From an uncultured bacterium (lineage in GTDB: Bacteria; Babelota; Babeliae; Babelales; Babelaceae), in assembly GCA_963717435.1 (NCBI GenBank), contig OY970332.1:704001-768000 (forward strand): a stretch of 64,000 nucleotides of DNA, written 5' to 3'. Position numbers and translations under genes: made by a program. The notes under the pieces were generated by a model. That model was not told the origin of the DNA, searched no databases, and worked only from the letters and a program-made list of their open reading frames with translations. Below, piece after piece: positions 752-59,135 of the stretch (its first letter is position 1; each line of letters starts with the position of its first letter).

Positions 752-1093
752 ATGATCGATTCAAATTGTCTGTTTTGCAAAATTATCTCCGGTCAAATTC
801 CAGCCGAAATAATAAAAGATACTGAGCAAGTCTTGGTCATCAAAGACAAGTTCCCAAAAGCCCCAATTCATTATTTAATCATCCCCAAAAGTCACGTTAA
901 AGATATTCAGTCAATAGATCCAAAAGATTCTTGGATGGCTGCAAAGACCTTTGAAGTTGCAAAACAACTTTCTGAGGAAAATCCAGAAGCCAAAGATTTT
1001 AAGCTTGTTGTTAATTCCGGCTACGGCGCTGGCCAAAGGGTGTTCCATTTACACACCCATTTTTTAGCTGGTAGATTGCAGGGCGAAGTTTAA
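752..1093 (+). CDS. HIT family nucleotide hydrolase (HinT-like)
   Basis: N-terminal CLFCKI, GQRVFHLHTH histidine triad. Confidence 0.92.
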   Translation: MIDSNCLFCKIISGQIPAEIIKDTEQVLVIKDKFPKAPIHYLIIPKSHVKDIQSIDPKDSWMAAKTFEVAKQLSEENPEAKDFKLVVNSGYGAGQRVFHLHTHFLAGRLQGEV

Positions 1094-1659
1094 TTTTTAT
1101 CATCTACAATGTCTTCTATTTCCATAAGGGCGTAGTAAAATTCTTCGTGACCGCCATACTTAAGACTTTCATCTTTTAATAAAGATTTAATTTTAAGTAG
1201 TTTTTCGTTTGCTATATTTAGCACTTGGTTTTTATCCGTTTCTTCGTCACAAATTAAATGTATGTCTAAAATTACGTCATGTAGCTGTTCGGCAGTATCT
1301 TCTGGAGAAGCTGCATTTAGGGATTGTTCTGTTAAAGATTTAATTTTAATTAGCTTGCTATTATTTTTTTCCAAAAACTCTACCAAAGTTTTAATTTCTG
1401 AAAGTTGTTTGGATAAATTTTGTTGTGTTATTTCAGACAATTTTTTTGTTGCTTTTTGTTCGCTCAAAATTTCAATGTTTCTATCATTTGATTTTGAATA
1501 TTTTCTTAAATTATTTAAGTTTGTTTTTGGTTGTAGCAAAAATCTTGTTCTAGAAAGCTTTGCGCCGGTTTTTAATAAAGTCGCAAACATTGCATGTGAT
1601 TTGGATTGGGATAACATAATTAATGAGAGTAGGATAAAATTATTGAATGTAGATTTCAC
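1090..1659 (-). CDS. Secreted hypothetical protein, paralog 1 (signal peptide + presequence-like segment + helical domain)
   Basis: GTG start with AGGAGA RBS; N-terminus shared with the two adjacent genes. Confidence 0.8.
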   Translation of the reverse strand: MKSTFNNFILLSLIMLSQSKSHAMFATLLKTGAKLSRTRFLLQPKTNLNNLRKYSKSNDRNIEILSEQKATKKLSEITQQNLSKQLSEIKTLVEFLEKNNSKLIKIKSLTEQSLNAASPEDTAEQLHDVILDIHLICDEETDKNQVLNIANEKLLKIKSLLKDESLKYGGHEEFYYALMEIEDIVDDKN

Positions 1660-1674
1660 TCTTTCTCCTTTGTA

Positions 1675-2136
1675 TTATCTAGTTTTTTCTTCCCAGTAAG
1701 TTTTTTCCCAGAACTCTTTTTGTTCAGGGTTCTTTTTTATTAGCTCTTTCAATTTCTCATATTCTTCATTGTTCTTTATTAAATCAATTCTTTCAATAAG
1801 TTTTAGTTTTAATTTAATTATCTTTGCAGCTTGTTCTTTTTCAGTTATTTCCCATTGCTCTACTTCATTTAAAAAATCTTTAATCATTACAAAATGATAC
1901 GGGTAAACTGAGTCTAGGCTGTCCTGAACCTCTTTATAATTATTGTATTTGTTATCGAATTCTTTTCTTTCTAAGACATATTTTCTTAGGCTATTTATCG
2001 TTTTTGGTTGTAACAACAATTTTGTTCTTGAAATCTTTGCGCCGGTTTTTAATAAATTACTAAACATAGAGTTTAGTTTGGCTTGAGATAGTATAATTAA
2101 TGAGATTAAAATAGATTTTTGAAAGTTCGATAACAT
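1675..2136 (-). CDS. Secreted hypothetical protein, paralog 2
   Basis: 153-aa ORF; first ~53 aa homologous to neighbours. Confidence 0.8.
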   Translation of the reverse strand: MLSNFQKSILISLIILSQAKLNSMFSNLLKTGAKISRTKLLLQPKTINSLRKYVLERKEFDNKYNNYKEVQDSLDSVYPYHFVMIKDFLNEVEQWEITEKEQAAKIIKLKLKLIERIDLIKNNEEYEKLKELIKKNPEQKEFWEKTYWEEKTR

Positions 2137-2177
2137 AATAGGTCTCTTTTCTTTAGGTTCCTGATGTATATTGTCTT

Positions 2178-56289: not shown

Positions 56290-56751
56290 CTAATTTATAA
56301 ATTCTAAATTTATTATCTTGCGTATATCGTACTCTGAGTCATCAAATGGATACTCGTCGTCTTGGCTAGCAAATAGTTTAATGTCTAAATTTTCGGTTTT
56401 TTTTTCTTCATTTTCGATAGTTATGTCGCAATCTATATTAAAATCTAAAGTTTTAAGCACATTTTCGATTATTTCTAGATTGTCATCGAACCAATATCTG
56501 TCAGTTATAGATAATATCTCATATCTACTTGATTCCAGATTTCTTAAAATTTTATACAAATCCAGCAAAGCTGCCCGATTTTTGTGTCTAGAGTGAAAGT
56601 TGACATTTCTCTGAAATATTTTTTTGGTATTGTGGCTCAGATAGTTTCTTTTTGCCGGTTCCGGTACCAGGTTATCTATTACACAGTTAGTTTTTGGGTT
56701 AATTAATAAGATACATAACAAAAATTGTGTTATACACGCGGACTTTTTCAT
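56290..56751 (-). CDS. Secreted hypothetical protein
   Basis: Signal peptide ..KTNC|V; acidic C-terminus. Confidence 0.65.
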   Translation of the reverse strand: MKKSACITQFLLCILLINPKTNCVIDNLVPEPAKRNYLSHNTKKIFQRNVNFHSRHKNRAALLDLYKILRNLESSRYEILSITDRYWFDDNLEIIENVLKTLDFNIDCDITIENEEKKTENLDIKLFASQDDEYPFDDSEYDIRKIINLEFIN

Positions 56752-56939
56752 TTTTGGCCCTCACTGAAATAGTTATTCTTTGGGAAATAGTATTGTTTAT
56801 GCAATTAATTTGTAAATAGATTTATAAAATATTTTTATAAAATATAAATTTTTAAAATTCTTGCTCAACTTTGCTTAAATTAAATAAGCTGCTTTTGTCC
56901 TATTCGACCAAAAAATTTAGAGAAACCGGAGTCCCCCCT

Positions 56940-58103
56940 ATGAAATTAAATAAACTTTCTTATTTTATATTTTTCTTTTGCGCATTAACTACAAGTTCGT
57001 TATGGTCCATGGCTGAGCCAGCGCTTGAGCCAATGTTTGAATTTCTTTTTAGCGACATTAATGAATATATAGCAAGAAAAAATCAGGTTAACAGTGAAAA
57101 CTATTATTCTCAAGATGACAGTGAATCTGAGACAGATTATTCAGACTCAAATTTTGAATCCCTTGACGATATGTTGGGTTTTTCTTATAGAGACCCAGAT
57201 TATGAAAGCATAAAAGAGAAGCATGATTGCAGAGAATATTTTGAAAAAAGTGAGTATAAAACTCCGGAAAGCAGGCTAAAATTACTCGAGGAGGTTTTGT
57301 TTAATAGGCAAATAGAAAAAATTGACCGGAACTATTGCGATTATTCTTTCCCATTATCACCAAAAAATTCAAGACTACTTATATCCGTGATTCTAAAAGC
57401 GAGTTTTACGCTAAAATATGGCATATTCTTTTTTGATATAGATTACTTGAAGCTGCTTGAATTACTTTCAAAAAATATTATAGATAATAACCAATACGAT
57501 CCCAATAAATTTAACCCTGATTTGCTTTTGAAAATTATAAATAACATGCCAACCCTTCAAGACATTTTAAATTGGCGTTATGAAAAAAATTTTGGTATCG
57601 AAGCTGAATTTGCTTTGCAAGATTACATACCCGGAGAATATACAAAAACGTATTTAAAACTGATTCTATTGATTGCCTGCAAGAATTTGAATAAAAATTT
57701 TAATTTTGAATATCGCGAAAAAATCTTAAATGCTCTATTAAGAAAAATCTGCAATCTTAATGGCAATCGTAGCTCCCTAATATTGGTAGTATTTGAAAAT
57801 AAGCTTCGAAAAAGCATCGAAAAAATTACCGAGGCTGAGTTCAAAGGGAGATCTTCGCGTGTCATTTGTAAAATTGCTGATCTTAGCTTTGAAATGGAAG
57901 AAAAGCAGAAACTGGAGCTAAATAATTCTTCTAGTTCTCGAACCGATTCAAATTATGAGTCCGTTTCCAGCGGCGAGCTTTCAGATACCGAACGATCTGA
58001 ACAATCCGGAAAATCTCCAGTTCCCCATTTTGAAAGTCTAACTATAGATTCAAAAAGTAACTCAAAAACTGATTCAAAAACTGAAATCGAAGAGAATTTT
58101 TGA
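56940..58103 (+). CDS. Secreted hypothetical protein (shares domain with next gene)
   Basis: Start revised to MKLNKLSY after GGAG; signal ..LWS|MAE; acidic/Ser-rich ends. Confidence 0.75.
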   Translation: MKLNKLSYFIFFFCALTTSSLWSMAEPALEPMFEFLFSDINEYIARKNQVNSENYYSQDDSESETDYSDSNFESLDDMLGFSYRDPDYESIKEKHDCREYFEKSEYKTPESRLKLLEEVLFNRQIEKIDRNYCDYSFPLSPKNSRLLISVILKASFTLKYGIFFFDIDYLKLLELLSKNIIDNNQYDPNKFNPDLLLKIINNMPTLQDILNWRYEKNFGIEAEFALQDYIPGEYTKTYLKLILLIACKNLNKNFNFEYREKILNALLRKICNLNGNRSSLILVVFENKLRKSIEKITEAEFKGRSSRVICKIADLSFEMEEKQKLELNNSSSSRTDSNYESVSSGELSDTERSEQSGKSPVPHFESLTIDSKSNSKTDSKTEIEENF

Positions 58104-58196
58104 AGCATATACAGAGATAATAAAATTGGCGATAATAAATAAAATTTGCTAGTCTGTGCCCAGATTTTGAATAACAATTTTATTATTGGAGAACGC

Positions 58197-59135
58197 ATGA
58201 AATCAAAACTGGTTTTGCTCACATTCTTTTCAGTGCTAATAACCAACTCTTTTTGTATGGAGCCAGAAGCTGTTGACGAGACAGCAAATAAAACTTCAAA
58301 TAATATACCAAAGCATCTAAGAGAAACAAAAATATTAAACCCAACTGTTCAAGAAGTTAAAGAAGCAAGAGACAGCCTGGCTAGAGCAGGTTACGAAGAA
58401 GATTGTGATTTTTTGAGGTTTTTTAGATTTGTAATTGGATCTGGAAAAGATAATCCGCGATATGTTAGATCGGCCAAAGAGGTGATGACCGCACTAACCT
58501 TCAGAATAGAAGGTGAAAATTCTGATGACGAAAGAGTCATTAAGGTCATAAGTGAAGAATATCAAGAAATATTCGAAGATTTCTTGGGCATATTTAGTTA
58601 TGTTGATCCCGAATTCTTAACCAATAAAGTAAATTGGCAGATTTTGAATGCTATGCCTGATCTATTCAGTACACTTTTGGCAATAAAAAAAATACCTTAT
58701 AGTGACGAATTTATCGGATTTAAAGACTATAAGTTACTAAATCTTTATGAGAACATTTTAACTAGAGTTGCTTGCTCCGACGTTGAAAATCAAGCGATAT
58801 TGCTCGAGCTCTTAATTCGCAAATTAGGAACCAATTGTGCTTTTTTAGAAGAATTTTGTGATATAAGCGATTTCGATGATGAAGGCATCGTGGACAAAGC
58901 CATAAAACTTCGTATCAATAAATTGTCAGAAAAAGCTGTTAAAAAAAATGGTGTGCTAAAGAAAGCTAAAAAAGTTAAAAAAATAAAAGTTGATAGTGAC
59001 CTTGCGAGTGAAACTAAAGTCGAACAACAACAACCAGAGATTCCTGTTCTGAATGAAAAGAAGAAAAAGACAGTAAGATCAAAGATTTACTCATTGCTCA
59101 GGATGTGCAGTGCCGGGGCTGGAACGGCTGAATAG
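58197..59135 (+). CDS. Secreted hypothetical protein with Lys-rich C-terminus
   Basis: Start revised to MKSKLV after GGAG; signal ..SFC|MEP. Confidence 0.75.
   Translation: MKSKLVLLTFFSVLITNSFCMEPEAVDETANKTSNNIPKHLRETKILNPTVQEVKEARDSLARAGYEEDCDFLRFFRFVIGSGKDNPRYVRSAKEVMTALTFRIEGENSDDERVIKVISEEYQEIFEDFLGIFSYVDPEFLTNKVNWQILNAMPDLFSTLLAIKKIPYSDEFIGFKDYKLLNLYENILTRVACSDVENQAILLELLIRKLGTNCAFLEEFCDISDFDDEGIVDKAIKLRINKLSEKAVKKNGVLKKAKKVKKIKVDSDLASETKVEQQQPEIPVLNEKKKKTVRSKIYSLLRMCSAGAGTAE

Follow-up and report, generated by a model that had tools for sequence, protein, structure and literature searches.

Why should so many unrelated exported proteins of one bacterium carry a methionine exactly where the signal peptide is predicted to end? 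The question is raised by a 64,000-nucleotide stretch of DNA, here called the window (G000:C1:704001-768000), from a Dependentiae genome (G000) that consists of a single contig of 1,198,203 bp with 34.6% G+C. The EF-G that it encodes shares 60-73% identity with Dependentiae or Babeliales proteins and 39-58% with those from outside the Dependentiae. Thirteen open reading frames (ORFs) of the window encode a leader that resembles a signal peptide and is followed directly by Met. We find that this Met-first motif is real, statistically strong over the whole genome and set at the level of the protein. Judging from the sequences, we propose that it probably reflects a lineage-specific rule by which substrates of signal peptidase I, exported with ordinary, translated Sec signal peptides, would have Met and Glu as the first two residues of the mature protein. 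Roughly 15-20% of the proteins that G000 exports, in dozens of unrelated and mostly fast-evolving families, would follow such a rule.

Methionine is the preferred residue after predicted cleavage sites

Gene calling in G000 with a codon-usage model gave 1135-1138 genes, and a protein was flagged as signal-peptide-like (423-425 proteins) when its N-terminus combined an n-region of net positive charge with a hydrophobic core free of charged residues. Met was given a score of zero in this heuristic and was therefore unable to lengthen the core. Flagged proteins with a Met 3-10 residues past the core (96-97) are called carriers, and the other 328 non-carriers. With 97 carriers among 425 flagged proteins, Met is found in this interval in 22.8% of cases versus 12.5% expected, and in 11.8% of flagged proteins in a control stretch 15-22 residues past the core. 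At 5-7 residues past the core its frequency is 4.5-5.7%, compared with 1.65% overall. Met followed by Glu or Asp (M[ED]) occurs 66 times at residues 15-35 of the 425 proteins, where 15.1 occurrences are expected (p=4e-22). The preliminary description of the window had suggested comparing Met at the predicted +1 position with its background, and by our heuristic signal-peptide calls the excess is indeed present genome-wide: in the 273-284 proteins that lack further membrane segments and have one or more sites in accord with the -3/-1 rule, no residue follows these sites more often than Met (11.5-12%, versus 1.65% background). The most frequent +1 residues in G000 are Met (12%), Lys (9%), Asn (8%), Ser (7%) and Asp (7%).

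As an outgroup control, identical scripts were run on 47 loci (777 kb) from other phyla. The 86 proteins flagged in this sample contain one M[ED]; Met follows 0.5% of the valid sites, and M[ED] occurs 0.58 times per 1000 positions at residues 15-35 versus 1.51 times at residues 60-400. Since the control lacks the excess, the signal is not created by the method.

What surrounds the Met? When 96 proteins are aligned on it, the residue at -1 is Ser (27), Cys (19), Ala (11) or Gly (7) in 64 of the 96; Tyr or Phe is preferred at -2, Ser, Ile or Leu at -3, and Asn at -4 and -5. The residue after the Met is Glu in 37 of the 96, a 6.2-fold excess; by comparison, Glu is the second residue in 40 of 712 leaderless proteins (p=1e-21). 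Cys at -1 is tied to Met (19/96 versus 3/75). The Met stands at a site that passes the -3/-1 rule in 62 of 97 carriers, and the median leader length is 22 residues. Because the Met is found exactly after the -3/-1 site, the predicted mature protein would begin with Met-Glu or Met-Asp, and it is from this arrangement that we infer cleavage before the junction Met. The carriers are weakly clustered along the genome (14 adjacent pairs versus 8.9 expected, p=0.04).

The constraint acts on the protein

The constraint is on amino acids and not on DNA. The codons at -1 (TCT, TGC, TGT, AGC, TCA, GCA, GGC and others) follow genome-wide synonymous usage, and the Glu codons at +2 (GAA 24, GAG 10) are likewise in line with genome usage; a motif at the nucleotide level was rejected on these grounds. 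Copying of leaders from gene to gene was rejected as well, because blastn comparison of the leader together with 120 nt of upstream DNA yields similar pairs at about the same rate among carriers (9/4656) as among non-carriers (41/23653). Clustering of the mature parts by blastp divides the 97 carriers into 79 groups, the 62 with a valid site into 50, and the 40 of the latter that have M[ED] into 33. A search of 30 other genera yielded no homologue of the window ORFs at 54533-55690 and 58197-59135, which means that the motif is met again in genes of very recent origin or rapid evolution.

Paralogues reveal how well the Met is kept. The junction Met is shared by 15 of the 30 pairs with less than 35% identity, the highest value of 26 offsets (mean 25%); in pairs with at least 35% identity it is identical in 16 of 27 versus a position mean of 64%, which is unexceptional, and in neither set are the pairs independent of one another. 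A 34% identical homologue on another contig (P0011) has ..SSSVFC/MEQGI where the query has ..FIDSVS/MEEGE (the slash marks the predicted cut), and the two leaders have diverged fully.

These observations bear on the best of the alternatives, namely that the Met is the scar of an old start codon: extension of a gene upstream would have put a signal peptide on a cytoplasmic protein and left the former start Met behind as a neutral leftover. Leader-like extensions on cytoplasmic enzymes are consistent with this idea, with the epimerase domain starting at residue 42-50, UDP-glucose dehydrogenase at residue 26 and IMP dehydrogenase at residue 35, and with GNATs extended in the same manner. So is a CPT-like kinase among the carriers (K/MFSCKKSGKIVLLNG), whose leaderless homologue in the relative G027 starts MQTGKVILLNG, close to the junction Met; and the weak preference for Met at +1 without Glu in two further relatives, G043 and G061, would also fit leftovers. 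However, a neutral leftover is at odds with the frequency of Glu after the junction Met relative to the second residue of leaderless proteins, with a -3/-1 site phased exactly on the Met and with the association of Cys at -1 with Met. Neither does it agree with Met being the best-kept position in paralogues below 35% identity and retained in P0011, or with the enzyme families that have acquired signal peptides, most of which are without the Met. We therefore regard the scar as an unlikely general explanation. Gene extension of this kind probably accounts for some cases and perhaps for the origin of the motif, not for its retention.

Translation probably starts at the first Met

Is the junction Met instead the true start, with the leader untranslated, or an alternative start by which one gene yields an exported and a cytoplasmic form? 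An ATG in frame, 20-30 codons from the start of the ORF, encodes the junction Met, and by our own arithmetic an AT-rich upstream frame is open by chance over 22 codons in about 20% of cases. We calculated the duplex energy between the 3' end of 16S rRNA and the 18 nt upstream of each candidate start, with a threshold of -4.5 kcal/mol. Upstream of the first Met (Met1) the mean is -4.18 kcal/mol and 49% of genes reach the threshold, as at other gene starts (-3.96 to -4.87 kcal/mol). Upstream of the junction Met (Met2) the mean is -1.47 kcal/mol and 9% reach it, which is weaker than pairing at 3082 internal Met codons used as control (mean -2.76 kcal/mol, 21%). The preliminary description had advised looking for an internal ribosome-binding site before the second Met; the Shine-Dalgarno sequence precedes Met1, not Met2. 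The leaders themselves have all three parts of a signal peptide, basic, hydrophobic and polar, their residues at -1 and -3 are small, and in a tandem trio of paralogues in the window the -1 residue varies only among Ala, Ser and Cys while the Met and the Phe that follows it are kept. Finally, for five window genes a public protein collection contains the Met1 form in 5/5 cases and the Met2 form in 0/5. Translation from Met2 is for these reasons very unlikely. An in-frame junction Met could nevertheless mislead the choice of start codon; the five public calls that were checked all keep the leader.

Export machinery and class of signal

G000 encodes SecY (PF00344, 347.6 bits), a single-copy LepB (TIGR02227, 115.6 bits versus a cut-off of 47) and LspA. 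The n-h-c layout of the leaders, their small residues at -1 and -3 and the SecY and LepB genes place them with the substrates of Sec and signal peptidase I. They are not leaders of type IV pilins or pseudopilins: in 13/13 window cases the hydrophobic residues come before the Met and polar residues after it, and a true N_methyl pilin encoded elsewhere in the genome is a non-carrier. Nor are they twin-arginine translocation (Tat) signals, since RR occurs in 0/13 window leaders. The type of LepB was considered as a determinant of the motif and discarded, because a LepB that matches its model in two pieces instead of one does not track the motif.

Two T2SSF genes are found in the genome, at about 330 kb and about 703 kb. 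The second is the PilC/GspF gene that the preliminary description placed at the start of the window, and its end does lie there. Two secretin genes (854 and 945 amino acids) are found close together at L072:6404-14004 (G000:C1:587672-595272, + strand). On the basis of the neighbouring secretins and the two T2SSF genes, the bacterium may possess two type II/type IV-pilus-like machines.

The Cys found at -1 in a subset of carriers, together with the presence of LspA, raises the question of whether these are lipoproteins, cut by signal peptidase II before the Cys to yield Cys-Met-Glu N-termini. One PPIase-domain protein (..LPGC/MD) does have a lipobox, and it is the only one of the 19 carriers with Cys before Met in which the pattern [LVI][ASTVI][GAS]C is canonical. 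In the others the Cys is preceded by Tyr, Phe, Asn, His or Lys, where a lipobox has Gly, Ala or Ser, or there is no Leu, Val or Ile at -3. Moreover, Ser replaces Cys in otherwise identical contexts (NSYS/ME versus NSYC/ME), an interchange that fits the P1 residue of signal peptidase I and not a lipidated Cys. Lipidation is thus a most improbable account of the motif. As for chance, or a reader's selection of leaders that happen to be followed by Met, the window cases were chosen visually, and the 13 include three paralogues and three junctions with a poor residue at -1, but given the genome-wide excess and its absence from 777 kb of other phyla under the same pipeline this explanation has next to no standing.

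Which proteins carry the motif?

The preliminary description presented the motif as a mark of orphan proteins. This proved not to be the case: 62/97 carriers have no Pfam family (E up to 1e-4) versus 135/218 non-carriers (E up to 1e-5), so orphans are not enriched. What distinguishes the carriers is the kind of family. Ankyrin, WD40 and leucine-rich repeat (LRR) proteins together make up 17/97 carriers versus 11/218 non-carriers (odds ratio 4.0, p=9e-4), in a comparison that is uneven in that all 97 carriers entered unfiltered, whereas the 328 non-carriers were reduced to the 218 soluble ones with a valid -3/-1 site. The carriers with a family are mainly ankyrin proteins (9), WD40 and other beta-propellers (7), an LRR protein (1) and AAA ATPases (3); a MutS-V/ankyrin fusion, a C11 peptidase and a NADAR protein are further examples. 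The non-carriers include the classic envelope set of BamA, two secretins, OmpA, periplasmic and solute-binding proteins, an S41 peptidase, an amidase, MreC, thioredoxins, GH1 and GH3. The earlier impression that housekeeping proteins are without the motif was accurate for these envelope proteins, and also for the GH1 enzyme of the window. There is a preference for the motif among eukaryote-like repeat proteins and an avoidance of it in the classic envelope set.

Also among the non-carriers are many enzymes whose place in other bacteria is the cytoplasm. Leader-like N-terminal extensions of 25-50 residues occur on normally cytoplasmic enzymes, including sugar-nucleotide epimerases, dehydratases, UDP-glucose dehydrogenase, IMP dehydrogenase, GNATs and glycosyltransferases; examples are L057:15232-18095, L058:2062-3462, L069:7362-8465 and L097:14606-16129. 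In the window itself a 700-residue AAA+ ATPase lies behind a signal peptide (Table 1), and two more leader-bearing AAA proteins in the genome are carriers too. A 632-residue leader protein at L088:2712-4607 (G000:C1:943929-945824, + strand) ends in a C-terminal Ntox17 ("novel toxin 17") domain.

Distribution among relatives

How far does the motif extend? The Dependentiae phylum amounts to a single order in the genome collection used, and the same pipeline was applied to samples from six of its other genomes. G004, of the same family as G000, and G027, of family f10 (400-kb samples each), display the full rule, with junctions such as NNIIS/ME and SLFS/ME. In G004, M[ED] occurs 9.52 times per 1000 positions at residues 15-35 versus 0.93 times at residues 60-400, and Met follows 25.7% of valid sites; the corresponding values in G027 are 6.16, 1.34 and 15.6%. 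Only a small number of orthologues came to light in these two samples.

As a lead only, because it relies on scores alone, we searched 121 genomes with a 28-position profile built from 45 G000 junctions and scored up to 68 candidates per genome. By this measure G000 gives 67 matches, G004 44 and G027 33 versus 9 for G043, 7 for G061, 5 for G029 and 3 for G020. Among the families, again for up to 68 candidates of each genome, f10 (7/7 genomes at 17 or more), f6 (5/5 at 13 or more), f14 (16/44 at 17 or more) and f1 (5/15 at 13 or more) score high, and f5 (11/11 at 8 or less) and f12 (11/11 at 7 or less) score low. These results suggest a patchy spread across the phylum. In the best RpoC tree of seven genomes, G000, G004 and G027 lie on one side of a branch whose support is only 45/34. 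The rpoC match in another genome (G002:C1:520385-524456) is in five pieces with many in-frame TGA, TAG and TAA codons, from frameshifts, assembly errors or another cause, and that in G061 has one in-frame TAA.

A proposed Met-Glu rule for signal peptidase I substrates

We propose that the preprotein would be initiated at the first Met and pass the inner membrane via SecYEG, and that the single LepB would then cut just ahead of the second Met, leaving a mature N-terminus of Met-Glu. At such a site, -1 would be occupied by Ser, Cys, Ala or Gly, all of them small, +1 by Met and +2 usually by Glu. This scheme is that of classical Sec export in layout and leader length, in its preference for small residues at -1 and -3, and in that SecY and LepB are encoded. 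It differs in the -1 position, where Ser and Cys dominate instead of the classical Ala, and in the +1 position, since Met is rare there in other signal-peptide logos. The closest analogue is the Q-rule of Bacteroidetes, in which Gln at +1 of signal peptidase I substrates is cyclised to pyroglutamate, as the texts consulted report (PMC5837995, PMC10653852). Both are lineage-limited preferences for a residue right after the signal peptidase I site, shared by many unrelated exported proteins. The likeness is one of kind only, and G000 is not itself a member of the Q-rule: Met, with Glu usually next to it, is found here at about 12-26% of predicted sites, whereas Gln is found at >48-60%. The motif is biased to one protein class and patchy within its phylum, whereas the Q-rule, according to the main text of PMC5837995, embraces most substrates of all compartments, is near-universal and is tied to glutaminyl cyclase. 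No modifying enzyme has been found here, glutaminyl cyclase not having been among those searched for.

Several observations weigh against the proposed rule. Signal peptides, cut sites and gene calls are the product of home-made heuristics and not of a trained predictor, and the class comparison is uneven as described above. The carrier set is impure: only 62/97 fit the -3/-1 rule at the Met, 20/97 contain additional membrane segments, and among the carriers are clear cases of multi-pass transporters or gene fragments. In the window, the -1 residue is small in 10/13 junctions and is His, Pro and Pro in the remaining three. Most exported proteins lie outside the rule, which makes it a preference and not a requirement of LepB. 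Among the relatives, M[ED] is not in excess in G043 (family f14; 1.94 versus 1.53 per 1000 positions) or in G061 (family f5; 1.03 versus 1.28), where Met weakly follows 9.5% and 7.8% of valid sites, respectively; and the 100-kb samples of G029 (family f12) and G020 (family f3) contain the motif in 0/33 and 0/15 flagged proteins. An exported GNAT acetyltransferase was considered as a partner enzyme and rejected, because the two leader-bearing GNATs have weak, generic matches only, in motif-rich and motif-poor genomes alike.

What would be the benefit of a Met-Glu N-terminus? The bias in protein class suggests that what matters is what becomes of the protein after cleavage, whether inside the host or in a second step of export. 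If the Met-Glu rule holds, our first guess, which we offer tentatively, is that it would give proteins acting in the host cytosol a defined, eukaryote-like N-terminus that is not a degron, akin to the likeness to host-translated proteins (NatB acetylation, N-end rule) suggested in the preliminary description. Two other guesses appear more doubtful, and to an equal degree: that the motif is a sorting mark for a second step, or that it serves protection from aminopeptidases or the precision of cleavage. The first guess is opposed by the relatives without the rule, which also export ankyrin-type proteins. Likewise, Met-Phe and Met-Leu would be destabilising Met-hydrophobic N-termini in N-degron pathways, and the three Met-Phe cases and one Met-Leu case of the window therefore fit badly with a reading based purely on stability. 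A more specific proposal, namely that Met-Glu is a code separating host-directed effectors from envelope proteins, through a second export step or through a host-like start that resists degradation, is conceivable but on the whole rather unlikely. If such a code exists, its patchy spread would imply a single determinant that is gained and lost, or a link to particular host groups.

Models for two of these functions are known from other systems. Early mature residues decide the destination of lipoproteins, as in the +2 rule of Lol avoidance and the lipoprotein export signal of Bacteroidetes, and these signals are a model for the sorting mark; they follow a lipidated Cys created by signal peptidase II, whereas the present motif is without a lipobox and its sorting role is putative. 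For host stability the model is the edema factor of anthrax, a Sec-exported toxin under N-end-rule control in the host cytosol, as reported in PMC3755998. There the residue left at the N-terminus of a bacterial protein can determine how active or stable it is inside a eukaryotic cell; that case concerns a single engineered toxin in animal cells, whereas the hosts of Dependentiae are protists.

For a Dependentiae genome, the main text of PMC4378268 describes a type II-like system only, with no type III, IV or VI secretion, and signal peptides on 79/126 ankyrin proteins; another genome paper, in its main text, assigns signal peptides to 44% of coding sequences (PMC6561590). We found no description of Met at +1 in a literature search that included passages of PMC6561590, PMC4378268 and PMC5837995 (Additional file 9 of PMC4378268, on ankyrins with signal peptides, might bear on the point), and the words methionine and TM6 are absent from the main text of PMC5837995. 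If cleavage is confirmed, this would be the second lineage-specific +1 rule after the Q-rule, and one biased to proteins that are likely directed to the host. It would also provide an inexpensive means of recognising candidate effectors by sequence in a phylum of uncultured protist parasites, where most effectors are orphans. Furthermore, it opens to experiment the question of how proteins whose only way out is Sec, alone or together with a type II-like system, are sorted or are kept stable inside the host.

The leaders of the window

All thirteen junctions quoted in the preliminary description are present in the sequence, and the translated ORFs read exactly as given there (Table 1). By eye, 13/13 leaders consist of a basic stretch, 10-15 hydrophobic residues and a short polar stretch before the Met; they are 20-30 residues long, with the junction Met at residue 21-31, and the heuristic accepts 9/13. 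Purine-rich, Shine-Dalgarno-like motifs are found upstream of the first start codon in most of the 13 ORFs. The proteins had been called otherwise unrelated, which is true of 11 independent families; a tandem array of three paralogues (1090-1659, 1675-2136 and 2178-2756) counts as one.

Table 1. Leader-bearing ORFs of the window, comparators and the T2SSF gene (aa, amino acids; positions are those of the window)
Feature	Position	Strand	Leader	Residues -3 to -1	Junction Met (first two mature residues)	Remarks
ORF, 189 aa, GTG start	1090..1659	-	23 aa	SHA	1590-1588 (MF)	AAAGGAG upstream; first of tandem paralogue trio
ORF, 153 aa	1675..2136	-	23 aa	LNS	2067-2065 (MF)	paralogue of 1090-1659
ORF, 192 aa from ATG 2756	2178..2756	-	23 aa	LHC	2687-2685 (MF)	paralogue of 1090-1659; TTG-started frame extends to 2786
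ORF, 168 aa	5058..5564	+	25 aa	TSC	5133-5135 (ME)	no Pfam family; public proteins include the full-length form, not the Met2-start form
ORF, 780 aa	36563..38905	+	30 aa	CRH	36653-36655 (MA)	no Pfam family; weakest case: His at -1, Glu in c-region
AAA+ ATPase, 700 aa	40662..42764	-	24 aa	IRA	42692-42690 (ME)	PF00004, residues 436-564
ORF, 211 aa	43962..44597	+	26 aa	SLP	44040-44042 (MQ)	partial Peptidase_S13 match (profile positions 55-145 of 444); Pro at -1 non-canonical
ORF, 116 aa	48342..48692	-	21 aa	LNC	48629-48627 (ML)	
ORF, 120 aa	48719..49081	-	22 aa	IRS	49015-49013 (ME)	
ORF, 385 aa	54533..55690	-	21 aa	VCC	55627-55625 (MD)	no homologue in 30 other genera
ORF, 129 aa	55782..56171	-	22 aa	IMP	56105-56103 (MH)	weak: Pro at -1, rejected by heuristic
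ORF, 387 aa from ATG 56940	56940..58103	+	23 aa	LWS	57009-57011 (MA)	
ORF, 312 aa from ATG 58197	58197..59135	+	20 aa	SFC	58257-58259 (ME)	no homologue in 30 other genera; two weak same-genome paralogues
GH1 glycosidase (comparator)	13830..15374	+	present	CHA		junction without Met (..SSVCHA/NPN)
Orphan ORF, 153 aa (comparator)	56290..56751	-	present	TNC		..KTNC/VIDN, without Met
ORF (comparator)	40097..40678		present			leader without Met
T2SSF (GspF/PilC) gene, 3' end	1..86	+				gene begins before the window; PF00482 match G000:C1:703106-704086; one of two in genome

The members of the trio (1090-2786, - strand) are alike in their first 60 or so residues only, that is, in the leader and a conserved MF..LLKTGAK.SRT..LLQPKT module, and their C-terminal parts are unrelated; this looks like a common N-terminal module on variable bodies. 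The ORF with the partial Peptidase_S13 match may be a truncated or remodelled gene. Elsewhere the window contains an rRNA operon, nine tRNAs and the rpoB/rpoC and fusA region. Finally, two neighbouring small ORFs on the + strand, at 38918-39343 (141 residues, starting MNDQWIRWEP..) and 39605-40018 (137 residues, starting MSEEWIKWEP..), are leaderless and look like paralogues.

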